DNA of 64,000 nucleotides from Methanobacteriota archaeon (GCA_014240385.1 JAAZXA010000068.1:29090-93089), one strand, 5' to 3'; counted from the stretch's first letter, positions 2,909-19,491 are shown. Program-made: numbers and translations. The notes: generated by a model not told the origin, from the letters alone.

Positions 2909-3856
2909 TCATGTGGGTCCATTGGATTCTCCGTATGCGCCACTTGGTAGAGTCCATCCTCCCCTGGAACGAATCAATTGTCTTTCTTCAATCCATGCCT
3001 CGACGAGGTATGTGACGCCTTCGTATGGTGTTCCTTTCTCTACCAATTCTCGGACACTCACGCCTTGCTTGATTGTAAAACCGAATTCTTCTTCGTATTT
3101 CGCAATCTTCTCCACCATTGCTGGATAGAGTTCGGCGGCTGATGCCCATTGATTCGCATTTCCGAATATGCAGGTAATGCATGACAGTCTGCCCCATCCT
3201 AGCCAGTATGCTGGATGAGCCATGATTCTGTGTTTTTCCATGATTTCCCACACTTGTTTTTCTGTCCAATCGTGAATTGGCCTCCAATGATGCACCGTTC
3301 TCAATTTTCCATGACAACGGTGATTCTCGAAGGTGTTGTAGTTGGATCGTGATTTGCTTTCTCCTGCTCTCTCACCAGTCACAACAAGGGTCTTCTTGCC
3401 CTTGAATCGTTCTTGGTTGTTGATTGCTGCGCTCATCACATCGATTTTCAAATAGGCACTGCACCATCTTACCCGCAGATCTGCGGAGACTTGTGGAAAC
3501 TTGCGCCTTGTACCATCAGGGCCTTTACCCCCTGATGAATCGATTGTTCCGTCTGGGTTCTCCCAGAACACCTTGCCTGTCGGGCTGTTATCTCGTAGCA
3601 TCTCTTGCTCGAATCCGCCATCTCTCCAACTGAAGTAGATGGGAACATTGAATTCCTTTGCGAATTCCCGACAGTAATCTTCTGTTATCGGCCAATCCAT
3701 GAATGGATCGCTTCCTGGCGCACCATCAATGAGATGGTGCCACAGTTCTATTTTCTCTTTGTCAACACCGTTGTCTAGCAGGTCAAGGAAACAAGCTGTT
3801 GAGTCCTTTCCTCCGCTAAAGGCAACGATGATGTAATCGTATTCATTTAGGTTCAT
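2909..3856 (-). CDS. PP-loop ATP pyrophosphatase (PAPS reductase / DndC / QueC-like superfamily)
   Basis: N-terminal YIIVAFSGGKDSTACFL = SGGxDS PP-loop; motif start 3854-3856; 315 aa. Confidence 0.6.
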   Translation of the reverse strand: MNLNEYDYIIVAFSGGKDSTACFLDLLDNGVDKEKIELWHHLIDGAPGSDPFMDWPITEDYCREFAKEFNVPIYFSWRDGGFEQEMLRDNSPTGKVFWENPDGTIDSSGGKGPDGTRRKFPQVSADLRVRWCSAYLKIDVMSAAINNQERFKGKKTLVVTGERAGESKSRSNYNTFENHRCHGKLRTVHHWRPIHDWTEKQVWEIMEKHRIMAHPAYWLGWGRLSCITCIFGNANQWASAAELYPAMVEKIAKYEEEFGFTIKQGVSVRELVEKGTPYEGVTYLVEAWIEERQLIRSRGGWTLPSGAYGESNGPT

Positions 3857-3892
3857 GAGCGGTTCATTCCGACAAGGGAATTTCCTTGTTGG

Positions 3893-4126
3893 TTATTGTA
3901 GTTGTGAAACTGTTGTTACTGCGCGTTCGCCTTTAATCACCTTCTGTAAAGCATGAAGGCTGATTACAAGGGGGATGTAGGTTTGCCCATCCCCTGTTGT
4001 GTATGTTTCACAGTTTCCCATTTCGTTTACATTGATGGAGATCTTGATTGCTCCACCTTGGTTGCTTCTTCGGGCGTAGCCCACTAGCCTAGCGGGTGCC
4101 GTATCATCTTTTTCTTCAATAGACAT
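3893..4126 (-). CDS. hypothetical protein, 77 aa
   Basis: motif start 4124-4126. Confidence 0.5.
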   Translation of the reverse strand: MSIEEKDDTAPARLVGYARRSNQGGAIKISINVNEMGNCETYTTGDGQTYIPLVISLHALQKVIKGERAVTTVSQLQ

Positions 4127-4136
4127 GAGCGGTAAA

Positions 4137-4586
4137 TCACATTTCGAATTTAGTGATGCCATCATCTTCCGATAATCTCACTTTACGGCCAATCATTGTA
4201 GCCTGTTTTCGAAGTGCTTTGATTTTAGCGTGTTGTTCTAGCAGTCCTTCTCCATCTAGCATTGCTATGATTTGGAAGGCTTTTTTGTGCGAACGAATAC
4301 TATCCAGAATATCGTCAATCTTCGACAATAGTTCCCACATCTCGGGGCTTATCGTCATCTTGACTGCAGTTCTGTAATCGTCTGCACAGAATCCCTTTCC
4401 ATTAGTTTCTCTTCCTTTGACGAAGTGTCCGTGGCCGATGTGACCGGGGACTGGGAGTTTCGCAAAAATATTCTCTCTAAGGGTTGAGTCGTTTCTGCAT
4501 ATACAGAGGGGATTAGCCCTCATTCTCTCTCTCCCGCCAATACTCCAAGAAGCGGGGGAGAACTGTAGTGTAAATTCAGTTTTCAT
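4137..4586 (-). CDS. 6-pyruvoyl-tetrahydropterin synthase / QueD-like protein (putative)
   Basis: FSPASW near N-terminus (cf. FSAAH) and PGHIGHGHFVKG (cf. PTPS/QueD NGHGHNY / RLHGHSF Zn-site motif); motif start 4584-4586. Confidence 0.4.
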   Translation of the reverse strand: MKTEFTLQFSPASWSIGGRERMRANPLCICRNDSTLRENIFAKLPVPGHIGHGHFVKGRETNGKGFCADDYRTAVKMTISPEMWELLSKIDDILDSIRSHKKAFQIIAMLDGEGLLEQHAKIKALRKQATMIGRKVRLSEDDGITKFEM

Positions 4587-4597
4587 GAGCGGTCCCT

Positions 4598-4849
4598 TTA
4601 GGCTAGGGGATTTAATCCTTCTTTCCTGATTATTTCAGTCACTTGAAATTGGTGCCGGTGTTTGGTACAGGTTTCGTTAAGAAGGGGTTCCCAATGGGGT
4701 GCTAAAAGGGCGTTTTTGTTTCCTGGACATACTCCAGTATGTCCTTTGGTAATATTCTCTAATTCTTCCTCTGTTGCCCAGCCTTCTTCGGGCCAGGTGT
4801 GCTCTGCTTTACAGAACTTGCATCGGAAGATTGCTTTTATCTCTGCCAT
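4598..4849 (-). CDS. Cys-rich Zn-binding protein, 83 aa
   Basis: CKFCKAEH...CPGN; motif start 4847-4849. Confidence 0.55.
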   Translation of the reverse strand: MAEIKAIFRCKFCKAEHTWPEEGWATEEELENITKGHTGVCPGNKNALLAPHWEPLLNETCTKHRHQFQVTEIIRKEGLNPLA

Positions 4850-4856
4850 GAGCGGT

Positions 4857-5087
4857 TCAATTTGTTACTTGCCAAATTGATTCTTTCCATCGTCGGCCTC
4901 TGTCGTAACATCTCTTTGTTTCGACCTTGACGAACTCTGGGTTCTTTCCCAAGACATTGTTCAATGTTTGGATTGAGGTTCCTTCTTTGGTATTCATATT
5001 GATGTGCTCAAGTATCTCATGTGTTGAGGCATTTCCTTTCTCTTGCACATACTCTATTGCCATTTTCTTGATTCTAATGGAGACCAT
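4857..5087 (-). CDS. hypothetical protein, 76 aa
   Basis: motif start 5085-5087 (track ORF 4857..5156 over-extended). Confidence 0.5.
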   Translation of the reverse strand: MVSIRIKKMAIEYVQEKGNASTHEILEHINMNTKEGTSIQTLNNVLGKNPEFVKVETKRCYDRGRRWKESIWQVTN

Positions 5088-5095
5088 GAGCGGTT

Positions 5096-5251
5096 CTATT
5101 CGGGCTGTAGAATTTTGTATTGTAACAGGCCCACTTTCAGGAAGTGCCTGATACAATCTGATCTAGATAACCCGTGCGTATCTGCGATTTCATCAATTTG
5201 TTTCAATTGACCTTTGCTTATTCTGAGACTCACCATCCCTTTTGTTGTCAT
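5096..5251 (-). CDS. ribbon-helix-helix (CopG/Arc-like) DNA-binding protein, 51 aa; not in ORF track
   Basis: motif start 5249-5251; MTTKGMVSLRISKGQLKQIDEIADTHGLSRSDCIRHFLKVGL shows beta-strand/helix/helix RHH pattern. Confidence 0.5.
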   Translation of the reverse strand: MTTKGMVSLRISKGQLKQIDEIADTHGLSRSDCIRHFLKVGLLQYKILQPE

Positions 5252-5260
5252 GAGCGGTGT

Positions 5261-5470
5261 TCAGGAAAAGTCTGCTCCGCAATTGTAGCATTGATCTATT
5301 CCTGTGTTTGCATGGTGGTCGCAACATTTCGGGCAGATTTCATTTTCTGCACAAGGGCAACCGTTCAAGATTCTTCGCATCTCTTTAATCCAGCAATTTA
5401 CCAAATAGCGTTGGGTTTCTGTAGTAAAGGTGTCGATGTTGTTTTCCATGTCTTCAAGTATTGTTTCCAT
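5261..5470 (-). CDS. Cys-rich protein, 69 aa
   Basis: motif start 5468-5470; CPCAENEICPKCCDHH...CYNCG. Confidence 0.5.
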   Translation of the reverse strand: METILEDMENNIDTFTTETQRYLVNCWIKEMRRILNGCPCAENEICPKCCDHHANTGIDQCYNCGADFS

Positions 5471-5478
5471 GAGCGGTT

Positions 5479-6354
5479 TCAAACTGGAACCCATAGTTTC
5501 CTGCCATTAGATGAACAGGCTCGGACTAGAGAGGCTGCAGCACTTGGAGAATTGAAGGTCACATCTCGAGTAAATCGTAAATGTTTGCCGTCTTCAATTA
5601 TTGCTCCTTTTTCAAGGAGTTCTTTTCTCCATCTTTGCTCGCTTAACCTCCATGAGTCTCGGGGTTGCTTGTTTGCTGTAGATCCACGAAATACCACGAA
5701 CTTCTCGTTGCGGTATTGGCCTGTTGCTTCAACACCATTTGTTAGTGCAAGCTTCAGCATATCGTTGTCCCAGTATTCTTCTGATAGCCAGTTTCCCTTG
5801 TTATCCATGCATAGAACCTGCTTACCGCCGGCTCCTTCCCATGGACTGTTTGAAAATACGACTGATACTGACGGCCATCTTGACGCTCCGCCCTTAACAT
5901 GTGCAGGGCCGGTGAAGTCAAGTCTCCCTTTGAAGAAAACCAAATGCGAAGCATGAGGAAAAATCCAATTATGCCACATCAGGGTTTCACAGTTGGTAGG
6001 TCGGATTAGCAAGACGACGATTTCTGCATCGCCATTCTGCACAGAATCAAATGCCTTCTTTACGAACGGTTTGATTCCGTGGCTTGTTTTGCTGGAGTAT
6101 GGCGGGTTGCACCATACTATTCCTTCCCACTTCTGTTCTAGGGAGTCCATCTCAATATCGTAGTAATTCTCGCATAGGGCGTTTTCTTCGCTTGCAGCCG
6201 CATCCAATGTGAATGGGCCGAATCTGGCATTTAGAGAATCGAATATTGCTGTCGGAGTGCGCATGTCGTTTTCATCGCTATTCTTCTGCTTTCGATTCTT
6301 ATGCCAGGAGCGAACTTCCTCTGGCGTCATTTCAATTGATATCTTTTCAGACAT
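5479..6354 (-). CDS. DNA N6-adenine methyltransferase (phage Dam-like family)
   Basis: IVWCNPPYS catalytic NPPY motif; motif start 6352-6354; 291 aa. Confidence 0.7.
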   Translation of the reverse strand: MSEKISIEMTPEEVRSWHKNRKQKNSDENDMRTPTAIFDSLNARFGPFTLDAAASEENALCENYYDIEMDSLEQKWEGIVWCNPPYSSKTSHGIKPFVKKAFDSVQNGDAEIVVLLIRPTNCETLMWHNWIFPHASHLVFFKGRLDFTGPAHVKGGASRWPSVSVVFSNSPWEGAGGKQVLCMDNKGNWLSEEYWDNDMLKLALTNGVEATGQYRNEKFVVFRGSTANKQPRDSWRLSEQRWRKELLEKGAIIEDGKHLRFTRDVTFNSPSAAASLVRACSSNGRKLWVPV

Positions 6355-6361
6355 GAGCGGT

Positions 6362-6652
6362 TCAAGGAGGGGAAGGCCATGTTGGGCAATGTTCTCTCAA
6401 CATTGCTGCCAATATCTCAGTAGCCTCTGAAGCTACTTCTCGGCTAATCCCTCGTTCAGTCCATTGGTCGTAATTGCCTTCTAGATTTTCGTAGTCCAGA
6501 AGTTTCAAGCATTCGTATGCTGCAATTGCAACGCTTTGATCATATTTGCATGTACCCTGTAATCCACAGCATGGACAACAGACGCACATTCCTTCACCAC
6601 CATTCCATGTGGCTGCTCCGCAAGTGCAGGGGTATGTTTTCTTTTTTGTCAT
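6362..6652 (-). CDS. Cys-rich protein, 96 aa
   Basis: motif start 6650-6652; CTCGAATWNGGEGMCVCCPCCGLQGTC. Confidence 0.5.
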   Translation of the reverse strand: MTKKKTYPCTCGAATWNGGEGMCVCCPCCGLQGTCKYDQSVAIAAYECLKLLDYENLEGNYDQWTERGISREVASEATEILAAMLREHCPTWPSPP

Positions 6653-6766
6653 GAGCGGTGTCCTCGATTATGAGGATGATTTCGGTTATTTCTCCGTTGT
6701 TGTCTCTCTTTACATCATGTGGTGTGCAAAGTCCGTATTTGGGGTGCATGTAATGCATGAGCGGTT

Positions 6767-7237
6767 TCATTCATCGAATGAAAGTTTGTCAAAACCGAAG
6801 TTCATCGTGTAGTAGTAACCATCATAAATCTCACCATATCCCTCGATGACAACTATGTCACCAATGGACATTGATGTGTGTCCGACTTCGTTTTCACTCA
6901 TCCAGTTCTGTCCGAATCTTGGATTATCTGGTTCGAGCGGTATTGCGTTGTCGAACTCGTCATAGCAGTTAATCCTGCCTTTGCCGTCCCAATTACGATA
7001 TTCTTCTGCAAGTGGGTTTGTTGCGTATGAGTTCATTCTTCGGAAGATGGCTTCAAGGGTGATTTTTGGTTCGTTATCCTGTGAAGGAACCAAGCACAAG
7101 CCGTCTTCCTCAAGGTTGAATACGACCCAACTGGGCAACTCAGCCCATTGTTCTTCGATTTCTTGCTTTGTTTGTAGTTTCCTGTCTCGGAACATAAATT
7201 CACAGTTCCTCTTTCCGTACAAGATCTTAATCTTCAT
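6767..7237 (-). CDS. hypothetical protein, 156 aa
   Basis: motif start 7235-7237. Confidence 0.55.
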   Translation of the reverse strand: MKIKILYGKRNCEFMFRDRKLQTKQEIEEQWAELPSWVVFNLEEDGLCLVPSQDNEPKITLEAIFRRMNSYATNPLAEEYRNWDGKGRINCYDEFDNAIPLEPDNPRFGQNWMSENEVGHTSMSIGDIVVIEGYGEIYDGYYYTMNFGFDKLSFDE

Positions 7238-7246
7238 GAGCGGTAT

Positions 7247-8152
7247 TCAGTCTCGGTAATTCGGGAACTTGTAGTACATAAGCCACCATGTTCCTCTAAT
7301 CTCATCGCCACAATTACTGCAGCATTGAGCCTTGCCGATACTTTTCTTCGTTTGTGTTCCGTAACAGTAATCGATTGGTTCTCCTGCTTCGCTACGGAAT
7401 AGTTTCTCGATAACTGACTTTGGAATATCATTTTCAGCCCATTTGAACACAAGTGTTCCATTGGTTTTCAATAATCTCCATAGTTCTCGGAATCCCTTAG
7501 CGAGGTTTTCTTGCCAATCATGTCCTAGATACCCATACTTCATTGTGATGAATCCTGTGCCTTTCTTTTTCACATGGGGTGGATCCCATACGATGTGATT
7601 GAAGGTCTCGTCATCAAATTGAGGTAAGTAGGTGAAGTCCCCCAGAATATCTGGTTTGCATTCCCATCCGGGTTGGGATGGTATAGGCACACCGTCTGGG
7701 TCTTTTCGAGGCATCATTACTCCTTGAGAGCCTTCGCCTTTGACTTCTATCCTTTGATCTAGGAACAATACATTCGGATTGTTTTTGTGGTTTTTGTGCC
7801 AAATCGACCTTGAACCTGCTGTTGCATCGAGGATCAATAATTCATTGGCAGTTGGTATAATGGTTGAGTTGATGGTGATTCTCCACCATCCTCTGTCTAA
7901 ACCATCTTTTTCCACATCTCCTTTTCCTTTCAAGGAACCAAGTGCTGTTCTTACTCGGTGTTTCCATTCGGGTTGATTAGTTCCACATGTGCAGCATTGG
8001 CTGCAGAGATAATCGTCATCGCATAGGTGAGGGAAAGAATCCTTCACATATTCGTAAATGACGGTTATTTTGTGGATTCCCTCTGGAACCACTTTCGTTA
8101 TTCCACCGTCCATTAGTTCCTTTTGCAATTTTCTGTGTTGCAATTGTTGCAT
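7247..8152 (-). CDS. DNA methyltransferase (N6A/N4C class) with Cys cluster
   Basis: IVWDPPHV (DPPY-type motif IV); motif start 8150-8152 (..EEPLM QQLQH.. in track ORF 7247..8209); 301 aa. Confidence 0.55.
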   Translation of the reverse strand: MQQLQHRKLQKELMDGGITKVVPEGIHKITVIYEYVKDSFPHLCDDDYLCSQCCTCGTNQPEWKHRVRTALGSLKGKGDVEKDGLDRGWWRITINSTIIPTANELLILDATAGSRSIWHKNHKNNPNVLFLDQRIEVKGEGSQGVMMPRKDPDGVPIPSQPGWECKPDILGDFTYLPQFDDETFNHIVWDPPHVKKKGTGFITMKYGYLGHDWQENLAKGFRELWRLLKTNGTLVFKWAENDIPKSVIEKLFRSEAGEPIDYCYGTQTKKSIGKAQCCSNCGDEIRGTWWLMYYKFPNYRD

Positions 8153-8162
8153 GAGCGGTTCC

Positions 8163-9002
8163 TCAGTTCCATCGCATTGCAAACCTGATAAGGTACTTGC
8201 GTTTTGCACATGAGGTCCTTATTGTAACAAACATAGTTCCATATCCGTTAGGATGGCCGTCGTTGACGGTTAGGTCTGTTGGACAATAGATTTCGATTCG
8301 GGCATTGTTCAATACCCAATTCGGCATTTTTGCTAATTGATCTAAGCGGTAAGCTTCTAGCGTCCCCGACATCTTAATTCCCCCTGGGTTATCAATGGGA
8401 ATAATGACGGTGTTGCTTTCCGATTCGCCTGCGGTTCTGCTTAATTTGAATTCGTTCTCATCAATTGCAAATTGTGTTTGCTGGAATGATTGTGCCAATG
8501 ATTTCAATTTCATCTTCAAGTTTTTGTCTTGGATAGTGAAATTCCTATTAGGCCCCCTCATCCTCTCGAGTTTGGGGTTCATCAAGGATTGAGATGAAAA
8601 ATCGTTGCGGGAATTTTTCCATTTGGAGTTGTTTCCCCAACGCATGGTGAATTCACCATCTTCATCTTCTAATTCAACGGTTGATTTGCCTGCAATTGAG
8701 GCTCCACTCATTCCTTTGAATGTTTTCCATTGCGTCTTGGAGAAATTTCTTCCAACTTCTCCATTGGCAATTTCGTGATTAGAATAGTCAATCCGGTTCA
8801 AACTGAGAAGTGGCATTATCTCTTCATTGCCTATACTCCACCATTCATGCTCCTGTGAATTGGGGTCAATTACAGGTGCCGTTGATGAAAGGAGGAGGCC
8901 TTGTTCACAAAATCCGATTCTAATCGAATCCTCGTTTCCAATTAAGCGATTGGCTATGCCAATTATCTGTCTATTTGCTGTAGCATCTAGTGTTGCTTTC
9001 AT
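8163..9002 (-). CDS. hypothetical protein, 279 aa
   Basis: motif start 9000-9002. Confidence 0.55.
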   Translation of the reverse strand: MKATLDATANRQIIGIANRLIGNEDSIRIGFCEQGLLLSSTAPVIDPNSQEHEWWSIGNEEIMPLLSLNRIDYSNHEIANGEVGRNFSKTQWKTFKGMSGASIAGKSTVELEDEDGEFTMRWGNNSKWKNSRNDFSSQSLMNPKLERMRGPNRNFTIQDKNLKMKLKSLAQSFQQTQFAIDENEFKLSRTAGESESNTVIIPIDNPGGIKMSGTLEAYRLDQLAKMPNWVLNNARIEIYCPTDLTVNDGHPNGYGTMFVTIRTSCAKRKYLIRFAMRWN

Positions 9003-9008
9003 GAGCGG

Positions 9009-9107
9009 TCAAATGATTTTTCCACATTTCTGACAAGACTGGGGGTGAACCCCTGAATGTCTAGGACATGGGTTTTCGCAAATACAATCTTCTGATTCAT
9101 CAGTCAT
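9009..9107 (-). CDS. Cys-rich micro-protein, 32 aa (not in ORF track)
   Basis: motif start 9105-9107; MTDESEDCICENPCPRHSGVHPQSCQKCGKII; stop abuts next motif. Confidence 0.3.
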   Translation of the reverse strand: MTDESEDCICENPCPRHSGVHPQSCQKCGKII

Positions 9108-9133
9108 GAGCGGTTTAGGATTACGAGTGTATT

Positions 9134-9376
9134 TCAACTCTTGGGGCGAAAATGTGCCTCGACTCCAGCCCAAATCCATACGGTTTCATGATCTCCATAA
9201 GTGACGATTACTATGTCTTGGGGTTTGTACCCGTCTTGCAATAAATGCTCAATGTTTTCGTCTGGTCCGCTTGAGGCGAACATTTTGAATCCAGGGTAGG
9301 GTGGATCTAGTTCATCTCTTGCGTTCCATAAGACGGTTTCACAAAACCAGCCTTCTACTCTATCTATTTCGGTCAT
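9134..9376 (-). CDS. hypothetical protein, 80 aa
   Basis: motif start 9374-9376. Confidence 0.5.
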   Translation of the reverse strand: MTEIDRVEGWFCETVLWNARDELDPPYPGFKMFASSGPDENIEHLLQDGYKPQDIVIVTYGDHETVWIWAGVEAHFRPKS

Positions 9377-9384
9377 GAGCGGTC

Positions 9385-9951
9385 CTATTGTTCAATCCAA
9401 TGCCCATCAGAATCGTATTCCTTTGGGTCAATGGTTGTCTTTTCATAGGCTTTGTGTGGGTTGATGTACCAGAATGATTCTTTGTTGATGTAAATCACGG
9501 CTTGTTCTAGTTGCCTTCCTTTCTCAGAGTTTCCTCGTAAGATTTCTTCCGGCCTCCAGGTATGTCCATGTTCATCAACCATAGAATCATCACCATGTTT
9601 CGAACGGTGGTCTGAAAGTAAATGGTAGCTTAGGTTCACGGCAAATTGCATTTCACTATGCCAACCTGCAGCGTTTGTGCTCCATCCTGCTTCTTTCATT
9701 CTTTCAATCAATTCGATGGTGACGAATTCTGGTAGTTTCTGTCCTTCACCAAAAGTTGGTGATTCCTTATCGTAATCTTTGTTGAAGTTAGGCCAAACAA
9801 TCTTGAGTCTGTTCAAAAACACAAGAGGGTCTCGGCAGTCCCCGCAACCTGTTACTGCACTGACGCTTCCAAGAGTATATCCGCAAGCGAATCCAATTTC
9901 TTCGTCAGTAAAGTTTTCTTTATCCATATAGTATCCTACTAGTAGTGGCAT
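9385..9951 (-). CDS. hypothetical protein, 188 aa
   Basis: motif start 9949-9951. Confidence 0.55.
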   Translation of the reverse strand: MPLLVGYYMDKENFTDEEIGFACGYTLGSVSAVTGCGDCRDPLVFLNRLKIVWPNFNKDYDKESPTFGEGQKLPEFVTIELIERMKEAGWSTNAAGWHSEMQFAVNLSYHLLSDHRSKHGDDSMVDEHGHTWRPEEILRGNSEKGRQLEQAVIYINKESFWYINPHKAYEKTTIDPKEYDSDGHWIEQ

Positions 9952-9958
9952 GAGCGGT

Positions 9959-10222
9959 TTATTCGTGGATCCAGAATACCCTGATTATGTGCGTTTCTGC
10001 ACTTGTTTCATCTGGTTCAAGGTGTATCTTGGTTATTGTCCTCATTCTTTTGGTTCTCTTTGCTCCTGAATATGTTTCAAGTGACTTTTCTTCCATGTGA
10101 ATAATTTTCCAACGGGAATAGATGTCGAGAAGCCCGTGCTTCTTGCTGCTCATCTTTTTCCTTAGAGTGCTTGAAGCTACCTTTCCTCCAATTTTGGGGT
10201 TTTTCAGTGGTTCAATCTTCAT
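9959..10222 (-). CDS. hypothetical protein, 87 aa
   Basis: motif start 10220-10222. Confidence 0.5.
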   Translation of the reverse strand: MKIEPLKNPKIGGKVASSTLRKKMSSKKHGLLDIYSRWKIIHMEEKSLETYSGAKRTKRMRTITKIHLEPDETSAETHIIRVFWIHE

Positions 10223-10409
10223 GAGCGGTTTCTCCTAAATCTATTATTCCAAGTTCGACTGCAGCAAGTTCAATTGCCACATCTAGCGGCAGTATGTTGC
10301 CGCCTACGCAGTGTCTGTTGTGTTCCATGTAAATGGAGACAACTCGTGAACTGAATTCTGGGGTGTGATTTTCTTCAACTAATTTTCTTGCTTTTGTTGC
10401 TAAATCCAT
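10212..10409 (-). CDS. hypothetical protein, 65 aa
   Basis: motif start 10407-10409 (..KKPLM DLATK..). Confidence 0.5.
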   Translation of the reverse strand: MDLATKARKLVEENHTPEFSSRVVSIYMEHNRHCVGGNILPLDVAIELAAVELGIIDLGETAHED

Positions 10410-10422
10410 GAGCGGTTTCTTT

Positions 10423-10593: not shown

Positions 10594-10600
10594 GAGCGGT

Positions 10601-10807: not shown

Positions 10808-10814
10808 GAGCGGT

Positions 10815-11785: not shown

Positions 11786-12142
11786 TCACAACTTCATCAA
11801 CTTTCCCCGAAGGGATTCGAATTTGATGATCCTTTTGATAGCGTTTTGAAATTCCTTGTTCAGTTTTTCATCATCTGATTCAGATAGATGGAATTCAGGG
11901 TTTTTCATATTCAGTAATTTGTATCTCATCACAGAATTGACGAGGAATTTCTGTTCTTCTTCACTCAATTCAGACCTTGGGCGGTTGATTTTGTAATTGT
12001 TAATCAGCCGTTCCAGAACAAACATTTGTTCTCTATGGTCGTATGAGCATGTTTCAAGCCATTGTTTTGCTTCGATTCGTAATTGCTTTCGAAGATCAAT
12101 AACCCTTTCAGTTTTTTTCCTCAAGTGGGTTAGGTTCGTCAT
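11786..12142 (-). CDS. hypothetical protein, 118 aa
   Basis: variant motif catgagtggtt, start 12140-12142. Confidence 0.5.
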   Translation of the reverse strand: MTNLTHLRKKTERVIDLRKQLRIEAKQWLETCSYDHREQMFVLERLINNYKINRPRSELSEEEQKFLVNSVMRYKLLNMKNPEFHLSESDDEKLNKEFQNAIKRIIKFESLRGKLMKL

Positions 12143-12419
12143 GAGTGGTTAAGTCCCATACGCACACTTGATATCCACCTGATAGGATTCCTCCTCTAAA
12201 GGCGGAACCAACCTTCTTGAAACGCTTGTCTTTGGACAAACAGTTGCCGAGTTGTTGGCTTGTCGTCCCGTGCCTCATGGTTTCATTGATGTAATCTTGA
12301 ATTGCATAAGTTGGCTGGGGGCCGTTATCTTCTAGGTACTGGACTATCTTGATTCGTATTCTTTGTGTCTTCATGGAAATCACCCTACGGGGGTTCCCTT
12401 GATGAAGTCTTTGCTTCAT
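12108..12419 (-). CDS. putative winged-helix DNA-binding protein, 103 aa
   Basis: motif start 12417-12419 (..KLPLM KQRL..). Confidence 0.45.
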   Translation of the reverse strand: MKQRLHQGNPRRVISMKTQRIRIKIVQYLEDNGPQPTYAIQDYINETMRHGTTSQQLGNCLSKDKRFKKVGSAFRGGILSGGYQVCVWDLTTHDEPNPLEEKN

Positions 12420-12429
12420 GAGCGGTAAT

Positions 12430-12684
12430 TTATGCCAGCATTCCTCCCAGCATCTTATCGAGTTCCATATCATCTTTCACAGTAACCCAATGGGCTGATT
12501 CTGTGCAGTATCTCTTGAGTACATTGGTTGGATAGCCGATTATGTCTACAATCTTCCATTTCGGTCCATCAAAATTTACCCAGAATAGAGCTTCTTCCGC
12601 ATCTATTCTGGTTTTGATGGCTTTTCCCGAAGGGAGTGTGTAGATCATTTGGTTTCCATTTGAGATTGCATACTTTGCTTTCAT
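12430..12684 (-). CDS. hypothetical protein, 84 aa
   Basis: motif start 12682-12684. Confidence 0.5.
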   Translation of the reverse strand: MKAKYAISNGNQMIYTLPSGKAIKTRIDAEEALFWVNFDGPKWKIVDIIGYPTNVLKRYCTESAHWVTVKDDMELDKMLGGMLA

Positions 12685-13075
12685 GAGCGGTGTTTTTTAC
12701 CTCATGGTAATAGATGATGTAATGCTCTGCGTAAAGCATCAATTCACCTTTCTTCCAAGACTCGTATTCATCTTTTGTTGGCTCCATCCATCCTCCGTTT
12801 TGGGCTTCGGAATGGTCTGCAACTGTTTTTGTTGTCTGTAAAGTCCAGCGTTCGAATTCGTCGTCTTCCTTTTGTTTATCTTGATGATAGTCTACGAGTT
12901 CATCGGACAAGTTGTGGTGTGCTTTCAGATATGTAAGCATCGTTGGGATGTTGGGGAAATTTCTCCCAATTGCCCAAGTTGCTCCGCATCCCGTGTACTT
13001 TCCTTCTCCTTCTTCCCATGTGTCTTCGTAAATTTCAGACATTATGCTAGTGCAATGAAATAATTTCTTTTCCAT
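12569..13075 (-). CDS. hypothetical protein, 168 aa (overlaps downstream gene by ~116 nt)
   Basis: motif start 13073-13075 (..IKPLM EKKLFH..). Confidence 0.45.
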   Translation of the reverse strand: MEKKLFHCTSIMSEIYEDTWEEGEGKYTGCGATWAIGRNFPNIPTMLTYLKAHHNLSDELVDYHQDKQKEDDEFERWTLQTTKTVADHSEAQNGGWMEPTKDEYESWKKGELMLYAEHYIIYYHEVKNTAHESKVCNLKWKPNDLHTPFGKSHQNQNRCGRSSILGKF

Positions 13076-13082
13076 GAGCGGT

Positions 13083-13268
13083 TTAATCGTATTCAAGTTC
13101 GTAATAGCCATGTTCTTTGATCTTCTCGAAGATGATTTTCAACTTCTTGACTTCTCTGCGAACATCGTGATAATCTTGTTTGGATAGAATACGACCATAG
13201 TACATTCTTGCTACTACTTCGAAGAGTATCTCAAAAGCCTCTTCTTCCGTAGGTATTTCTTCATCCAT
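13083..13268 (-). CDS. hypothetical protein, 61 aa
   Basis: motif start 13266-13268. Confidence 0.5.
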   Translation of the reverse strand: MDEEIPTEEEAFEILFEVVARMYYGRILSKQDYHDVRREVKKLKIIFEKIKEHGYYELEYD

Positions 13269-13280
13269 GAGCGGTTCCCA

Positions 13281-13733
13281 TCAAATGTGGGGGGACTGTG
13301 TATCTCCATCGATTGGCATCGGTTGAATGCTAATCCATTTCTCAGTCCTGTAATGCATGTGGTCGTATAGCCATTCTTTCAATGGCGTAATACCTTTGCC
13401 GTAGACTGAAAGGGAATATTGTTGCAAGATAAATCGCTTGCGTTCCTCTGCAGCCTTGAGGTCTGGCAGTAATTCGTTCCAGTAGCCAGCCTTCGCATCA
13501 CCCCATTCGAGGATGTAACCTCCAAATGGTTTGTCGATACGCCAGGCTACAATTCGAGTCCACATATTCCCAAATTCATGTTCGTTGTTTTCAATAGTAA
13601 ATATCACTGGACCCTCGACATCGTGGCCTCCTTCTCTTAGTGTTCGAAGTTCTGTATCTCGCAGATTGAGGTTTTCGTCTGGTGTTCCTGTGTATTCGTT
13701 TATTTCCATCGGTTTATTTGGTCTTTTAACCAT
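13281..13733 (-). CDS. hypothetical protein, 150 aa
   Basis: motif start 13731-13733. Confidence 0.55.
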   Translation of the reverse strand: MVKRPNKPMEINEYTGTPDENLNLRDTELRTLREGGHDVEGPVIFTIENNEHEFGNMWTRIVAWRIDKPFGGYILEWGDAKAGYWNELLPDLKAAEERKRFILQQYSLSVYGKGITPLKEWLYDHMHYRTEKWISIQPMPIDGDTQSPHI

Positions 13734-13740
13734 GAGCGGT

Positions 13741-13923
13741 TCAATAACATCTACATATAATGCATGTAGTTGAAAAATATTCGACTACTGGGCATTCAGG
13801 TAAGCATCTTTGCTCATCTGCGTTTAGATTGCCCCAGCAGTGTTCTTCTGCATATTCTAGGACTGTTTCGTAGTCATATCCCTCATCTCCATTAATGATG
13901 AGCCAGTCGTCTTTGTTTTGCAT
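13741..13923 (-). CDS. Cys-rich protein, 60 aa
   Basis: motif start 13921-13923 (..MKPLM QNKDDW..). Confidence 0.5.
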   Translation of the reverse strand: MQNKDDWLIINGDEGYDYETVLEYAEEHCWGNLNADEQRCLPECPVVEYFSTTCIICRCY

Positions 13924-13931
13924 GAGCGGTT

Positions 13932-14006
13932 TCATTCGTAGGCACAATCGCATGTAGGATATCCTTCATCGTCGTACTCTTCTTCGCAGATTAGGCACCA
14001 GACCAT
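13932..14006 (-). CDS. Cys-rich micro-protein, 24 aa (not in ORF track)
   Basis: motif start 14004-14006; MVWCLICEEEYDDEGYPTCDCAYE; stop abuts next ACCGCTCATG. Confidence 0.25.
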   Translation of the reverse strand: MVWCLICEEEYDDEGYPTCDCAYE

Positions 14007-14015
14007 GAGCGGTGT

Positions 14016-15149
14016 TCAACTTGTCGAGACCCGATGAAAATTGGTAATCAGTCCTGCTTGAGAACTCCCTGTTCGAGCGTTCCAAGCCTTCTCTAATATC
14101 TTCTTATTCATTGAATGGTGGTAACTTGTCCTGTTCCATTGTTTCATGATGTGCTTGTAAAGCCCATCCGGGTCGTCATTGTAAGTTGAGAGTTCAAGAG
14201 CATCTTGATCCTGTTCCCAGACATTGTGTAATCCCCTGGCACTAGTTCCCCCAGCACCATCGGAACGAAGTAAATCCATCATTTCCTTGAAGGTAAATCC
14301 TGCAGCCTTACTGAATGGGTATGAATCTGTATTCCAGACCTTCTTCATGTGGTTTGCTGCCCAAGGCTTGTGTAGGTTGTTTTTCTTTCCAACTTTGATA
14401 AATCTTCCAGATTCACAATCCATAAGTTGCCGTAGCATGGCATTGAGTCTCCAACTAGTTGCATCTACGCATTTAGCACCAAGCATTGATGCTACCTTGG
14501 TTGCGTTCATTCCACCTGCGCCAAGAAGGAAGAAGTCTTTGTCTGCTTCTCTTAATTCTTGACTGGTGTTTAGAACGACATTCCAAAGTTTCGCCTTTGA
14601 GACGATGGTAGTTTCATTCTTGATGTCGGCATTTCCAATGCGATCCATTACTCTAAAAGTTGATTGAGCCAAATTACTACCGTAGCCAACCATAATGTCG
14701 TTGTCTATGTCGTATTGGTTCAAATGATGGATTGCTTCTTCTGCGTTCCTTCCGTGAATTACGGGTATTGTCTGCGGAATCTCTTCGTGCATCTCGCTAA
14801 ACCAGTCGCAACTTGTCTGTTGCCGTTCCACTACCTCATTTTCGGTGAGGCCTGTGAATCTCGGTATCGGGAAATCTGCTGCAATGATGATGTCATTGTC
14901 TTTGATTCCGATTCTCCTATGGTTTGCGACTAGATCTTCAACTTTGAATGTTGAAGCTAGTTCGGGATTCTGTAGGAAATTGAATCCTCCTGAATCCTTA
15001 GCGACTTGATGCTTTGTTGTGAACTCTTGATGGCTAAAGCCATCTCCGATTCTATCATTTATTGTGATGAGCATACTGTCGGTCAATTCCCTAACATCGT
15101 AGGGTCGTTTACCGATGTATTCTGCGTTTTCACTTGTAAAATTCTGCAT
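14016..15149 (-). CDS. tRNA-guanine transglycosylase-like protein (DpdA-like 7-deazaguanine DNA transglycosylase candidate)
   Basis: VAKDSGGFNFLQN matches TGT family DSGGFQ catalytic motif; FLLGAGG; 377 aa; motif start 15147-15149. Confidence 0.55.
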   Translation of the reverse strand: MQNFTSENAEYIGKRPYDVRELTDSMLITINDRIGDGFSHQEFTTKHQVAKDSGGFNFLQNPELASTFKVEDLVANHRRIGIKDNDIIIAADFPIPRFTGLTENEVVERQQTSCDWFSEMHEEIPQTIPVIHGRNAEEAIHHLNQYDIDNDIMVGYGSNLAQSTFRVMDRIGNADIKNETTIVSKAKLWNVVLNTSQELREADKDFFLLGAGGMNATKVASMLGAKCVDATSWRLNAMLRQLMDCESGRFIKVGKKNNLHKPWAANHMKKVWNTDSYPFSKAAGFTFKEMMDLLRSDGAGGTSARGLHNVWEQDQDALELSTYNDDPDGLYKHIMKQWNRTSYHHSMNKKILEKAWNARTGSSQAGLITNFHRVSTS

Positions 15150-15157
15150 GAGCGGTA

Positions 15158-15550
15158 TTATTGTTCATACACGATCCATTCGTTCTGTTCTGTAGACCAA
15201 ACCCAATACTGGCCGTAGCCCTGCATGTGCCATTGCCCTGAACCGGGCGGCATTTCAAAGGGTTCCCCCCAACCTGTCTGTCCAACTGTCGAAGGTTGTT
15301 CGAACTGTTGCGCAGGTGCAGGGGTTAGATCTACTGTTCTTCGGCTTGGTATTGTTACTAGTACTGGTAGCCAGCACCAGACCGTTATCAACAGGTAAAC
15401 TCCGTAGAATACAGGAGAATGAACCCATTGGGGTAGGTCGAATTGTGGTATGTTGTAATTTTGTGTGTTTGCATAGTAGTATGCAATTCCGAGCAACACC
15501 AATATGATGCCCGATATTCTGCGAACTGCCATTCCAATTATGTTCGTCAT
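15158..15550 (-). CDS. membrane protein, 130 aa
   Basis: motif start 15548-15550; two hydrophobic helices (GIILVLLGIAYYY, VFYGVYLLITVWCWLPVLV). Confidence 0.55.
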   Translation of the reverse strand: MTNIIGMAVRRISGIILVLLGIAYYYANTQNYNIPQFDLPQWVHSPVFYGVYLLITVWCWLPVLVTIPSRRTVDLTPAPAQQFEQPSTVGQTGWGEPFEMPPGSGQWHMQGYGQYWVWSTEQNEWIVYEQ

Positions 15551-15576
15551 GAGCGGTGCGGGGTGGTTCGACTACT

Positions 15577-15912
15577 TCAAACCCCTGCGATTGCTTCTTG
15601 TATCAACTCCATTCTTTCAGCGAGGAGTTCTCTTGCGTCTATATCCACAATTGCTGATACATCGACCTTGCCACCTTCAACTATTGTTAATCTGGTTCTC
15701 GGTTTGATGTACAGTTTTTCGTCATCGTTTATTTCAACATGGAAATCACCTGATGTCGTCAATAATGCAATTGCTTGTTTCTTGTTATTCGCTAGGTCTT
15801 CAAACTCAAAGCGGATGTCGGTTCCGCAAGTAGATAGAAGGTATTCTTGCAGTTCCCTTTCGGAACCGTTCCATTCAATGATTTCGTCTCCTTCGATGTA
15901 TTTCAAGTCCAT
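15577..15912 (-). CDS. hypothetical protein, 111 aa
   Basis: motif start 15910-15912 (..NEPLM DLKYIEG..). Confidence 0.5.
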   Translation of the reverse strand: MDLKYIEGDEIIEWNGSERELQEYLLSTCGTDIRFEFEDLANNKKQAIALLTTSGDFHVEINDDEKLYIKPRTRLTIVEGGKVDVSAIVDIDARELLAERMELIQEAIAGV

Positions 15913-15919
15913 GAGCGGT

Positions 15920-17191
15920 TCATTCCAGTATTTTCTGCATCTCCTTTTCGAGCAAAGCATCATTTCTTCGTGCTATGTGCTCTTTCATGGAGTATCGCAG
16001 ACCGTCATACTTGAGGCTGTTCAGCGTAGCCTTGCCAAGATTGGCAACAGGCTTACGCTCATACCAGTCTTTTCGCTTCATCATCTCGCCTGTAACGGGA
16101 TGAGGAACGATTTCATTTCCTTCTGGGCTTTCAGCGAGTTTCAACCATTGGAAGGGCATCAATTTCCATGCGCCTATCTTCTCAGTATATGGCTTGAATT
16201 CTTTCTTGTAGCCCGAAAGTCCTGATTTCTTATCGGGTTCTGGTGTCATCTTGTAAACATGAGTACAGTTAGGATCTTCGCACCATCCACTAGCCATAGG
16301 AGTCCTATGGTAGCCTCGGTTGCATCTACCTCCCTTGTTGAGAGGCATTCCATCTCTGTGCCATTTCTCATGCTTGTCTTCTGAGTAGAAGCGTTCTTCG
16401 ATTCCTAGAGCTTCTTGCAGCCCTATACCATCAGCGTCAATCAAACGGTCAACTTCCCATTCTTTGCAGAATGGACACCACATGCATGAACTCTTCTGGA
16501 CTGGGGAGCCATCTCCCCTGTAATCCCATCCAAGTATCTGCAACATGGCGAGGCATTCTTTCCTATTCATGTCCAATTCCTGGAGAGGATAGGAGTATTC
16601 ATGCCCTTTGACTTTGTTTTGACCGTGGTTTGCTGTGAATCTGTCAGTTCTTCCACCTTCGTTGGCTTCGATGCCAAGCATCCACCATTTTTCCGATACA
16701 GTATGGTCTCCAAAGGTTTCTTCTGCCCATTTCTGTTGGACATTTCCCTTGAATCTCATGCTGCAGGTATGTTGTTGTCCTCCAATTACTGGAAGCATTC
16801 CTCCATCCATCAACCATTCATAGATCTTGTAGACCTTTTCTCCCTTGGTGTAATCATCCTTCTCTGATTTGGGCAAACTTCTCCATTCTTCATAGCGGAG
16901 TTCTTCGCCTGTATCATTGTGATGATAAACGGGGATTGTGTGTCTAACGGTAACTACTGGCAAGCCTACTTCTGCGCATCGCTTCTCTGCGTATGCAAGG
17001 TTTTCGTAGGTTTCAGGCCATTCGCTACCGGGATCCGAGAATACGGCTGCAACGAATGGAGGAAACTTTTCGTCTAGTTCTTGTCGAGTTATCCCCAACG
17101 CTTCGGCTGAGGTGTCTCTGTCTAAGTGCATGGCTAGAAGGGCTGTTGAATCAACCCCTACGCCAAATGATAACAAGTCTATTCGTTTCAT
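15920..17191 (-). CDS. PP-loop-like / PAPS-reductase-like domain protein, 423 aa
   Basis: N-terminal LLSFGVGVDSTALLA resembles SxGxDS PP-loop; motif start 17189-17191. Confidence 0.4.
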   Translation of the reverse strand: MKRIDLLSFGVGVDSTALLAMHLDRDTSAEALGITRQELDEKFPPFVAAVFSDPGSEWPETYENLAYAEKRCAEVGLPVVTVRHTIPVYHHNDTGEELRYEEWRSLPKSEKDDYTKGEKVYKIYEWLMDGGMLPVIGGQQHTCSMRFKGNVQQKWAEETFGDHTVSEKWWMLGIEANEGGRTDRFTANHGQNKVKGHEYSYPLQELDMNRKECLAMLQILGWDYRGDGSPVQKSSCMWCPFCKEWEVDRLIDADGIGLQEALGIEERFYSEDKHEKWHRDGMPLNKGGRCNRGYHRTPMASGWCEDPNCTHVYKMTPEPDKKSGLSGYKKEFKPYTEKIGAWKLMPFQWLKLAESPEGNEIVPHPVTGEMMKRKDWYERKPVANLGKATLNSLKYDGLRYSMKEHIARRNDALLEKEMQKILE

Positions 17192-17198
17192 GAGCGGT

Positions 17199-17954
17199 TT
17201 ATTCCATAGATGCAATCTTTTGCTCTATGGCTGTGTGCTTTCGAAAGATGCTTAGGCATCTAATTCGTGTGTTTGGGCCACAGGTGATTGATACCACACC
17301 ACATCTTGTTGCCCCTTTGGGCTGAATGTAAACCAAATGGTGTAAGGCGAGGAGATATCCTCCTGGCTTTAGCACCCTGATGGCTTCTTTGACCCATGAA
17401 TAGGGCTTGATGTATTCTGTTTTCCATAACTTGTCGGAGTAATCTATCTTGACTCCGTCTGTTGTTTGCATGTCGTAAGGTGGATCTGCAATAACCATGT
17501 CGTATGAATCAGTTTCAATAGGGAACTGTTGTCTGGCATCAGCTACGAATGTAGGATTATTCGCTTCGCTAATGTCCATTGTGTCTTCATTCTCCCTTCC
17601 TTGGATGCTTCCCGAGAATAGGTGTAATACCTTGGTTTCATCGGTGACTTCCATTAGGGCGTCTACTCTACGAAGGAACCCATTTGGGTAGGCTCCCTTG
17701 TATTTCGCCATTGGTCGGCCACAAGCCCACCCTAGACGGAGTGATTTTTCCGTCATGTGGGTCAATGAGGCGTCTTTCTGTTTCAATTTGTTGTAATGCC
17801 TAGCGATTCGATGAATCGTCCCTTTCGAAACTGTTTCACCAATCCTATCGCCTGCCATCTTAGCAGCATCGTCATACGAGTTATTGCTAAGATCGTTGAT
17901 TACTTGCATATGGTCTAGCAATTCAACCTTTCTTCCTTTCAATGTTAAGGACAT
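17199..17954 (-). CDS. DNA methyltransferase (DPPY, N6A/N4C class)
   Basis: MVIADPPYDM motif IV; motif start 17952-17954; 251 aa. Confidence 0.6.
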   Translation of the reverse strand: MSLTLKGRKVELLDHMQVINDLSNNSYDDAAKMAGDRIGETVSKGTIHRIARHYNKLKQKDASLTHMTEKSLRLGWACGRPMAKYKGAYPNGFLRRVDALMEVTDETKVLHLFSGSIQGRENEDTMDISEANNPTFVADARQQFPIETDSYDMVIADPPYDMQTTDGVKIDYSDKLWKTEYIKPYSWVKEAIRVLKPGGYLLALHHLVYIQPKGATRCGVVSITCGPNTRIRCLSIFRKHTAIEQKIASME

Positions 17955-17961
17955 GAGCGGT

Positions 17962-18249
17962 TCAGTCTTTCATATCTTCGACTGCTGCTATCATTTGATA
18001 GAAGCGAGCATTCCTTTGATTGGGGCTCCCCATACCATACTCGTGTCCGTAGATTAGAGGGGTACAGGCCTTGTGCGTATCAGTTAGATGTTTTTCAATT
18101 TCATCAAGAGATACCCCTGCTTCCAATAGGAACTCGGTCCAGTTGCTAAATCTTTCATAACCATCGTGCTTTCTCAACATTCTCAATGATTGTTTCCATC
18201 GTTTCAGATCTGCTTCTTTGTCATCTGTCGTCATTTCTATTTCTGCCAT
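17962..18249 (-). CDS. hypothetical protein, 95 aa
   Basis: motif start 18247-18249. Confidence 0.5.
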   Translation of the reverse strand: MAEIEMTTDDKEADLKRWKQSLRMLRKHDGYERFSNWTEFLLEAGVSLDEIEKHLTDTHKACTPLIYGHEYGMGSPNQRNARFYQMIAAVEDMKD

Positions 18250-18256
18250 GAGCGGT

Positions 18257-18532
18257 TCAGTAATATTTTCTGTTTTGTATCAACCATTCCCATACGAGGG
18301 GTATTCTTTCCCTCATTTGTGGGTTTTTGCCGAATTTAGCGAGGTATTCAATGTATTCTTCAAGGTATGGGATTAGGTCGCTTCTTTCAATCCCTGCGTC
18401 TTGTAGAAGTTCCTCTACTCCTTCCAATATTGTGATTAGTGATTTGTAGCATCCCACTTGTTTCAAGTAGGTAATTGCCTTCTTTGTCTCACCAACCGGT
18501 TTAATGGTTGCTGCGGTCATAAATTCTGCCAT
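18257..18532 (-). CDS. hypothetical protein, 91 aa
   Basis: motif start 18530-18532 (..TPPLM AEFMTAA..). Confidence 0.5.
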   Translation of the reverse strand: MAEFMTAATIKPVGETKKAITYLKQVGCYKSLITILEGVEELLQDAGIERSDLIPYLEEYIEYLAKFGKNPQMRERIPLVWEWLIQNRKYY

Positions 18533-18543
18533 GAGCGGTGGGG

Positions 18544-19476
18544 TTATTCTGTTCCACATTGGTTCGGGCATACCCCGCAAGTTGTTACGCATCCGATAGC
18601 CCATGAGTCCTTCTCTCGATAGGGATCCCCATGGAAATACAATGCTCCTGCGGTTTCTTTCCGACTTTTCTTGCTCCAATCCGCATAACTGTGGGCCTTA
18701 TCGTAGGCAGTTTTGTCTACATACGGCCATCTTGGGTCATTAGGTTCCATCTTCCATGGTGTTTCAATAATTCTCCAATTGTTCTTCTTTGCGGTGTCTG
18801 CAAAATATTCCTGTGCTTCCCAGAGTAGCCTTCCTTCTTCTTGATTTGCATCGAATAAGAAGGTACACAATCTAATGAAAGTGTTTTCGTGTTTTGTCAT
18901 TCGATTGAACTTCTGCAGTGTCTGGATAATTCGCCTTGATCTCGATGAGACTTCGGGGTGTTCATCATATCCAGGAATGACCGACCAGTGTATTTTTACA
19001 CCTGCGATAGCCATTCGTGTCAATGTTTCTTCCGAGGGTATTTTCCAAAATTTTGTGATTACAACGGGAGTTAACCCAGTCTCGGCAATTATTTCTGCCG
19101 TTGCTGCGGTCAAGTCCCAATCAAATGATGGATCACCCATTACCCCGATTCTAACCCATCGGATTTTCGGTTCGTTCCAAATTAACTGCATACAATCCCA
19201 TCGAAGTAAGGCGGGATTCAGGATTTGCGATACTGGTATGTCGAAATCAATTCTCCCGAACATTACTCCTTGAGAATTCTTTGCGTAACAACCAGAACAT
19301 CTTCCTGCGCATCCCTTAACCGTATCACAGATGTTGGCATCTGTCTTTGTGTTGCCCCCAAGTCTGATTTCCTTTGCTTCATAGGGCCGTAGTGGCGCTC
19401 CTGTTGAAGTGTGGGTTTTTCTTGGACTGAGGGCAATTTTCGGTCCAAATCTTCGTTTGGTTTTCTGTATAGCCAT
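18544..19476 (-). CDS. radical SAM domain protein (QueE-like candidate)
   Basis: GCAGRCSGCY = CxxxCxxC-aromatic radical-SAM cluster motif; second CxxC cluster at C-terminus; motif start 19474-19476; 310 aa. Confidence 0.5.
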   Translation of the reverse strand: MAIQKTKRRFGPKIALSPRKTHTSTGAPLRPYEAKEIRLGGNTKTDANICDTVKGCAGRCSGCYAKNSQGVMFGRIDFDIPVSQILNPALLRWDCMQLIWNEPKIRWVRIGVMGDPSFDWDLTAATAEIIAETGLTPVVITKFWKIPSEETLTRMAIAGVKIHWSVIPGYDEHPEVSSRSRRIIQTLQKFNRMTKHENTFIRLCTFLFDANQEEGRLLWEAQEYFADTAKKNNWRIIETPWKMEPNDPRWPYVDKTAYDKAHSYADWSKKSRKETAGALYFHGDPYREKDSWAIGCVTTCGVCPNQCGTE

Positions 19477-19491
19477 GAGCGGTTTGTTGGT

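Follow-up and report, generated by a model that had tools for sequence, protein, structure and literature searches.

The 64-kb stretch of DNA analysed here (64,000 nucleotides from a Methanobacteriota archaeon, GCA_014240385.1 JAAZXA010000068.1:29090-93089; at its full length called the window below) encodes at 14016-15149, on the minus strand, a DpdA-like transglycosylase of 377 amino acids with a TGT-fold TIM barrel, as identified from an AlphaFold (AF2) model, Foldseek, a family profile and hhalign. We lean, with modest confidence, towards a "DpdA-only" arrangement, in which a DpdA-type enzyme would exchange guanine in viral DNA for a 7-deazaguanine made by the host. The block that holds the gene (2909-19476) is not a self-contained 7-deazaguanine pathway. 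Such a pathway had been proposed in the original prediction from five open reading frames (ORFs), all of which were confirmed on the minus strand with their motifs: AKDSGGFNF (14016-15149), GHIGHGHF (4137-4586), CAGRCSGCY (18544-19476), SGGKDS (2909-3856) and, in the second PP-loop-like ORF (15920-17191, start correctly placed at 17191), the degenerate loop FGVGVDS. The TGT-family call was borne out by the fold (AF2, Foldseek) and by a sequence bridge to Pfam TGT; of the proposed pathway the viral DpdA-type TGT paralogue therefore stands, while the QueD, QueE and QueC genes do not.

At the level of direct sequence comparison the transglycosylase was almost invisible. It gave no match in Pfam, PHROG, NCBIfam or PADLOC even at E = 10, the TGT, DpdA and DUF6610 models did not match it directly, tblastn found nothing in 50,697 phage records, and a profile search of PDB sequences with its alignment returned nothing useful. 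None of its 22 close metagenomic homologue clusters carried a Pfam domain. The AF2 model, which was built on the homologue alignment, reached a predicted local distance difference test score (pLDDT) of 86.8 and a predicted template-modelling score (pTM) of 0.85. Against the PDB, Foldseek placed QTRT1/TGT at the top (E = 7e-10, template-modelling score (TM) 0.60-0.64) and also matched ArcTGT and the DNA preQ0 insertase DpdA (7ui4, E = 5.6e-8); superposition of 7ui4 on the model gave a TM of 0.46 with a root-mean-square deviation of 15.7. The best matches among viral models (BFVD) were TGT/DpdA-like proteins of a Sulfolobales rod-shaped virus, Vibrio phage nt-1, Dinoroseobacter phage R5C and mycobacteriophages, and the DpdA3 structure of Cellulophaga phage phiST was a weak match at rank 24.

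The family profile, run against 1.84 billion representatives, retrieved 93 relatives only. Pfam TGT was found in 39 of the 69 remote full-length relatives (E down to 2.5e-29), and thus the link to TGT holds at the sequence level as well. In hhalign the extended family aligned to E. coli Tgt with 97.3% probability (E = 2e-11, 259 columns); Tgt was reached only with the wider alignment A6, the small family profiles aligning short motifs only. A GTDB scan with the close family found nothing, and domain fusions in the long relatives were uninformative. Two Radical_SAM matches (E = 0.0017) among the relatives are probably cross-matches. The protein belongs to the TGT/DpdA superfamily, yet lies outside every profile tried.

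The residues proposed for catalysis are D52 (AKDSGGF), D92 (ADFPIP), H132-G133 and D229 (VDATSW), each of them invariant down to members that are 17-26% identical (alignments A1 and A8). In the hhalign pairing with E. coli Tgt, DSGGF corresponded to D89, (A/L)DFP to D143 and D-x-T/S-S-W to the nucleophile D264; H-G was paired with Q-G, GSNL with GGLA and LLGAGG with LMGVG. The conserved active site of DpdA consists of D95, D130, H181, G182, G206, G207 and D256, and a structural Zn site (CXCX2CX22H) is reported to be conserved in the DpdA family (PMC10164549). D89, D143 and D264 of Tgt are equivalent to D95, D130 and D256 of DpdA, and all three catalytic aspartates are present in the window's protein. 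Moreover, the His-Gly pair H132-G133 replaces the Gln-Gly of Tgt and matches H181-G182 of DpdA. H308-N309 is also kept, this H-N aligning with the Zn-binding His of Tgt.

Pfam screens of all ORFs of at least 80 amino acids on the apparent coding strands of the window found no match to FolE (GTP cyclohydrolase I), QueD/PTPS, QueE, QueC, QueF or TGT, and tblastn with E. coli QueC, QueD, QueE and Tgt found none in the window or the related loci; the lack of a recognisable FolE, noted already in the original prediction, was thereby confirmed, and it extends to QueD, QueE, QueC and QueF across the window. Since the window and those related loci that could be read encode no FolE, QueD, QueE or QueC, the base (preQ0 or a relative) would be supplied by the host. 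By homology to DpdA and TGT, D229 would attack C1' of deoxyguanosine in DNA with D52 as acid/base, guanine would leave, and a free 7-deazaguanine base would resolve the covalent intermediate. The fold, the catalytic residues, the family placements and the lack of pathway genes are results of the analysis; that the enzyme acts on DNA, that a 7-deazaguanine is the base brought in and that the host supplies it we infer. DpdA-only phages exist, and their hosts mostly make preQ0; expression of the phage 9g DpdA by itself led to dPreQ0 in plasmid DNA (PMC6884629). In phages and viruses, DpdA is furthermore regarded as the signature by which 7-deazaguanine modification of DNA is recognised (PMC10516641). 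The two PP-loop proteins, the radical-SAM protein, an ORFan and at least four DNA methyltransferases of the early-gene region probably add other protective marks.

Several observations weigh against the DpdA-only arrangement: i) the protein shares less than 17% identity with every TGT or DpdA that has been characterised; ii) the Zn-site cysteines (CxCxxC) are absent, no Cys is conserved in 23 homologues, and H308 is the only Zn-site residue retained; iii) the 7-substituent is read by a Gly-rich loop that has changed here (GG to G157-S158-N159), and therefore the incoming base could differ; iv) the window is about half of an uncultured viral genome (~128 kb), because the product of the radical-SAM-like ORF 18544-19476 is also recorded, at 100% identity, on a 128,049-bp contig, and preQ0 genes could lie in the half beyond the 64 kb that were read; v) radical-SAM and PP-loop genes occur near the DpdA-like gene in several lineages, and a PAPS-reductase-like gene stands next to it in an Archaeoglobus provirus, both of which hint at joint action. 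Concerning the second point, loss of the Zn cysteines looks secondary, because CGCPVC still stands at the Zn-site position in one member of the wider clade, from Odinarchaeota. Judged by its residues, the protein has DpdA-like active-site chemistry but fails one feature described as defining DpdA.

Distant members of the DpdA-like clade were found in archaeal metagenome-assembled genomes (MAGs) of Heimdall-, Odin- and Helarchaeota, Thermofilaceae (L140 among the related loci, which are given L numbers here) and Archaeoglobus, some of them in apparent integrated elements. Because of this distribution, the window's virus may infect archaea. The Archaeoglobus gene product (sp. UBA230 MAG) is 25% identical; in that element (L141, 6022-9194) a PAPS-reductase-like gene and a C5-methyltransferase gene lie adjacent, directly upstream of the DpdA-like gene, and apparent terminase and portal genes, judged from their sequences, are nearby. 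The Helarchaeota element (L137) encodes a D5-type primase domain, a DUF5131 protein and an integrase.

The three remaining enzymes of the proposed pathway fared differently. The gene at 4137-4586 (minus strand, 149 amino acids), formerly called PTPS/QueD-like, is a conserved ORFan, a real gene with 11 homologues that carries the start motif described below. At E = 10 it matched neither a family model, PTPS included, nor a PDB entry, and hhalign against E. coli QueD gave a probability of 0.2%. Within GHIGHGHF, H49 alone is invariant, H52 is replaced by D or S in two homologues, and the third His (H54) is present in 2 of the 11; as so few homologues hold the HGH triplet, it is a chance resemblance and not a PTPS Zn site, and the QueD identity is ruled out.

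The 310-amino-acid protein at 18544-19476 (minus strand) retains its radical-SAM assignment on the evidence of the fold and an invariant CX3CX2C triad, and loses its assignment to QueE. It has 19 metagenomic homologues, in which C56-x3-C60-x2-C63-Y-A is invariant, and it carries a GxMGDP motif and a C-terminal CxxCPxxCG. No Pfam, PHROG or NCBIfam match was obtained, neither the QueE nor the Radical_SAM model being reached (a few homologues touched Radical_SAM at E ~0.1), and a profile search of PDB sequences with its alignment gave nothing useful. The AF2 model (pLDDT 84.3) matched MiaB, NifB, EpeE, QueE (rank 4, E = 9e-4), HydE and PFL-AE in Foldseek, all weakly and about equally (E 3e-4 to 6e-3, TM ~0.4). 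In hhalign only the 24-residue cluster loop aligned to E. coli QueE, and the QGEG that lies N-terminal to the cluster in that enzyme is absent. The DUF5131 gene near the DpdA-like gene of the Helarchaeota element prompted a comparison with DUF5131 (Gp37/Gp68), an identity that was rejected because only the Cys loop aligned. With its generic radical-SAM fold the protein represents a new family of these enzymes and cannot be identified as QueE.

For the two PP-loop proteins it is likewise the superfamily that held, and not QueC. PP-loop protein 1 (2909-3856, minus strand, 315 amino acids), an ATP pyrophosphatase of the PAPS-reductase/DndC/SspD/BrxP type with SGGKDS, matched PF01507 (PAPS_reduct) at 46.5 bits against a cut-off of 22.5, phrog_424 at E = 4.9e-38 and, in PADLOC, BrxP (1.3e-14), DndC (2e-11) and SspD (2.6e-10); QueC was matched in neither Pfam nor NCBIfam. 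Its single-sequence PDB matches were low-complexity artefacts against de novo trefoil proteins. PP-loop protein 2 (15920-17191, minus strand, 423 amino acids) is PAPS-reductase-like by phrog_424 (E = 3.4e-24), SspD (weak, E = 6.6e-5) and alignment A7. It reached 17.2 bits for PF01507, which is under the cut-off, and its loop, degenerate here, reads FGGGVDS in relatives. It has a CysH-type D-x-G-x-x-x-P-E-T-Y motif (DPGSEWPETY) that aligns to CysH, and eight invariant Cys, including a CMWC (alignment A7). Its start is not the TTG further upstream, at 17215, but the ATG at 17191, which follows the start-associated 9-mer. Only the 19-residue PP-loop aligned to E. coli QueC in hhalign, matches in the phage collection were weak and uninformative, and a profile search of PDB sequences found nothing useful. 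By their profile matches both proteins are thus PAPS-reductase/DndC/SspD/BrxP-like and not QueC. Directly downstream of PP-loop protein 1 lies a 168-amino-acid ORFan (2394-2900, minus strand) with no family match in Pfam, PHROG, NCBIfam or PADLOC; in L001, L002 and L011 a homologue with 39% identity is encoded immediately downstream of the DpdA-like gene (11092-11580 in L001 and L011). The ORFan could be an accessory factor.

Gene neighbourhoods were compared within 10 kb of the DpdA-like gene. The window and L014 have the radical-SAM gene and both PP-loop genes at this distance, L012 and L138 the radical-SAM gene and that of PP-loop protein 2, L001, L002 and L011 the radical-SAM gene, and L003, L004 and L013 the gene of PP-loop protein 2; L139 has the radical-SAM gene only. 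The three gene types are often together, and each can be absent. All marine loci with these genes form one syntenic virus family, and thus their co-location is weak evidence of coupling.

This pattern bears on an alternative that we consider unlikely, although it deserves weight, namely that the DpdA-like enzyme, the radical-SAM protein and one or both DndC-like PP-loop enzymes together make an undescribed DNA hypermodification. In an example of such a route, itself no likelier, a PP-loop enzyme would adenylate a carboxylate or carbonyl on the inserted base or the backbone, and the radical-SAM enzyme would remodel the product. The co-occurrence of all three gene types in the window, L012, L014 and L138 speaks for a joint pathway, as do the arrangement in the unrelated Archaeoglobus provirus and the altered Gly-rich loop. 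Since ArcS, which has the TGT fold, works with the radical-SAM protein RaSEA in archaeosine synthesis, the pairing also has a precedent. On the other hand, L001 and L011 lack a PP-loop gene and L003 and L013 a radical-SAM gene within 10 kb, L139 has a radical-SAM gene with no DpdA-like gene, the marine co-location is confounded by shared descent, and no fusion protein joins the domains. More narrowly, a Zn-site-less DpdA-like clade, common to marine viruses and archaeal MAGs, could work with radical-SAM and PP-loop enzymes to produce a new 7-deazapurine derivative or a combined base/sulfur mark, which we regard as rather improbable. It is doubtful, too, that the PP-loop pair, possibly with the radical-SAM enzyme, installs a sulfur or phosphorothioate-type DNA mark independently of the DpdA-like enzyme. 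The BrxP, DndC and SspD matches of protein 1, the SspD match of protein 2 and the invariant Cys of the latter, with their CxxC, are consistent with such a mark; those matches, however, span the shared PAPS-reductase core only and lie far under the curated cut-offs (42 bits against 290.4 for the DndC-type model TIGR03183), the Pfam screens of the window found no cysteine desulfurase and no partner of the DndD/DndE/SspB/SspC type, and phrog_424 is a common phage family without a demonstrated function.

Two further readings concern the transglycosylase and its supposed pathway. Modification of host or viral tRNA in the manner of TGT/ArcTGT, in place of DNA, strikes us as hardly probable. The model does lie closer to QTRT1/TGT than to DpdA 7ui4, and its N-terminal beta-strands could be a TGT-type lid, which bacterial DpdA does not have; but the His-Gly pair is the DpdA state, the protein has no PUA or C-terminal tRNA-binding domain, and its gene sits among DNA methyltransferases. 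Queuosine goes into tRNAs with GUN anticodons, and the two tRNA genes of the window, Arg(GCG) at 55297-55371 and Lys(CTT) at 59081-59156 (both minus strand), are not of this type. The standing of DpdA as a DNA-modification signature in phages and viruses (PMC10516641) also argues for DNA. Least credible of all is a preQ0-type pathway encoded by the virus itself, with 4137-4586 as QueD, 18544-19476 as QueE, 2909-3856 or 15920-17191 as QueC, and DpdA. The short motifs are similar to ones in the pathway enzymes, QueE is found at rank 4 among the fold matches of the radical-SAM-like protein, and the cluster loops of the two align; yet the QueD candidate fails in profile, motif and alignment, the QueC candidates match PAPS_reduct, DndC, SspD and BrxP, the QueE candidate resembles several other radical-SAM enzymes equally and has an extra C-terminal Cys motif in addition to lacking QGEG, and the screens of the window contained no FolE. 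Profile searches already largely refute this pathway. Of two profile outcomes that the original prediction had named as refuting it, one was obtained, the other proteins falling into unrelated families; the second was not, for the transglycosylase is no canonical tRNA-modifying TGT with an intact Zn site.

The block belongs to an early-gene region, rich in DNA-modification genes, of a marine virus not yet cultured. Megablast with the block gave no near match to the window among the 50,697 phage records; homologues of the window's proteins are almost exclusively metagenomic (marine and other), several of them on contigs of 60-135 kb. Between ~0.1 and 39 kb the genes lie close together on the minus strand, and at least four of those in the early block encode DNA methyltransferases: 5479-6354, 7247-8152, 17199-17954 and 29593-30480. 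That at 17199-17954 (minus strand), between PP-loop protein 2 and the radical-SAM gene, is of the N6/N4 type (phrog_3816, E = 5.4e-21; N6_N4_Mtase, weak; PADLOC MTase_II). The one at 5479-6354 (minus strand) is a Dam-family N6-adenine methyltransferase (PF05869, E = 3e-27) fused to DUF4357 (PF14267, E = 5e-16), and that at 7247-8152 (minus strand), whose start is set by the 9-mer CCGCTCATG, matched phrog_954 (E = 1.5e-36) and, in PADLOC, MTase_II (2.3e-23) and an orphan MTase (4.4e-21). In relatives the early block includes genes of the Mom family (PF25680, an adenine-modification enzyme family) and of DUF6011 (L001 16707-17567, L003 16289-17128, L138 8395-9261); the window itself gave no Mom match. 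The early block looks like a set of exchangeable DNA-modification genes.

Elsewhere in the window, a 402-amino-acid protein (42486-43694, plus strand) gave a weak TFIIB-repeat match (E = 2.6e-4, just under the cut-off) and a 247-amino-acid protein (51205-51948, plus strand) an Arf-family small-GTPase match just over the cut-off, matches that are unusual in a bacteriophage and compatible with an archaeal host; a weak TFIIB zinc-ribbon match was also seen in the relative L004. The plus-strand block encodes glycosyltransferases (44592-48177, plus strand), one GT4/GT1-like of 839 amino acids and one GT2 of 252. A serine recombinase with Resolvase and Recombinase domains lies at 57564-58385 (minus strand), and a 951-amino-acid protein had weak, uninformative matches only in the phage collection.

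The 9-mer CCGCTCATG looks more unusual than the 7-deazaguanine finding itself. Exactly this sequence, its ATG being the start codon, begins nearly all early genes, 87 in number, on the minus strand (window 150-39077; for example at 3854-3862, 15147-15155 and 19474-19482), and with an expectation of 0.36 it occurred 87 times on the minus strand and once on the plus strand. In the consensus, A-rich sequence leads into ACCGCTC and the ATG, with an upstream stop codon usually 7-11 nucleotides before the ATG. A start motif was also present in L001, L003, L011, L012, L013, L014, L138 and L139, and related viruses have their own 7-mer flush with the ATG (ACCGCTC, NYCGCTC, ATTGAAC, ACTGAAC, ACTGACC or AATGAAC). 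Between 39 and 64 kb the window's motif is missing and GGAGG-type sites are present, and a Shine-Dalgarno function was rejected on account of zero spacing and the lack of anti-Shine-Dalgarno complementarity. The motif may signal reinitiation, mark a site for RNA processing or for a repressor, or serve a viral RNA polymerase as its initiator. On L138, a 64-kb contig with the same start motif, a large protein (19375-20977, minus strand) matched RNA_pol_Rpb1_5, a large-subunit domain of multisubunit RNA polymerases, and a polymerase encoded by the virus could be related to the motif. An IMG/VR scan with a 14-mer of the motif returned almost only chance matches. The closest precedent, and the only one that a literature search for the motif yielded, is the "start-associated sequence" of cluster K mycobacteriophages.

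The DpdA-like clade, which keeps its catalytic residues and has lost its Zn cysteines, is missed by the TGT, DpdA and DUF6610 profiles tried, and its members come from marine viral contigs, some of them in Tara Oceans assemblies, and from Asgard, Thermoproteota and Archaeoglobus MAGs. Should they prove active, surveys that rely on profiles miss part of the DpdA-type modification, and enzymes of this type can do without the structural Zn site. Furthermore, short motifs next to a TGT-like gene can be a misleading basis for naming QueD, QueE and QueC.

Compared with known systems, the PP-loop proteins share with DndC, SspD and BrxP the PAPS-reductase PP-loop core and a place among DNA-modification genes; they differ in that the match is confined to this core at scores under the cut-offs, no Dnd or Ssp partner genes were found in the window screens, and the best family is the uncharacterised phage phrog_424. 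With Tgt, QTRT1 and ArcTGT the transglycosylase has in common the best overall fold match and the aligned DSGGF, D-x-x-P, LxGxG and D-nucleophile motifs, whereas it has His for the substrate-binding Gln, no Zn site, no PUA or C-terminal domains, and a viral setting among methyltransferases. From bacterial DpdA (Salmonella Montevideo, 7ui4; PMC10164549) it differs by the missing CXCX2C, by G157-S158 in place of G206-G207, by poor superposition, by the lack of a PADLOC DpdA match and in that no DpdB or DpdC partner was found, while D52/D92/H132-G133/D229 correspond to D95/D130/H181-G182/D256 and the HN is kept. The viral enzymes DpdA1-DpdA4 and the DpdA-only phages (Hutinet 2019, PMC6884629; Cui 2023, PMC10516641) are unlike it in so far as tblastn linked it to no phage record, neither DUF6610 (DpdA4) nor TGT of Pfam matches it, its Zn cysteines are absent, and its relatives are marine metagenomic viruses and archaeal MAGs. 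It is nevertheless like them in being a virus-encoded TGT fold with three catalytic Asp; DpdA3 and DpdA4 are also very remote from Pfam TGT and were found only by HHpred (PMC10516641), and in DpdA-only phages the enzyme can be present with no preQ0 synthesis gene in the genome (PMC6884629, PMC10516641).

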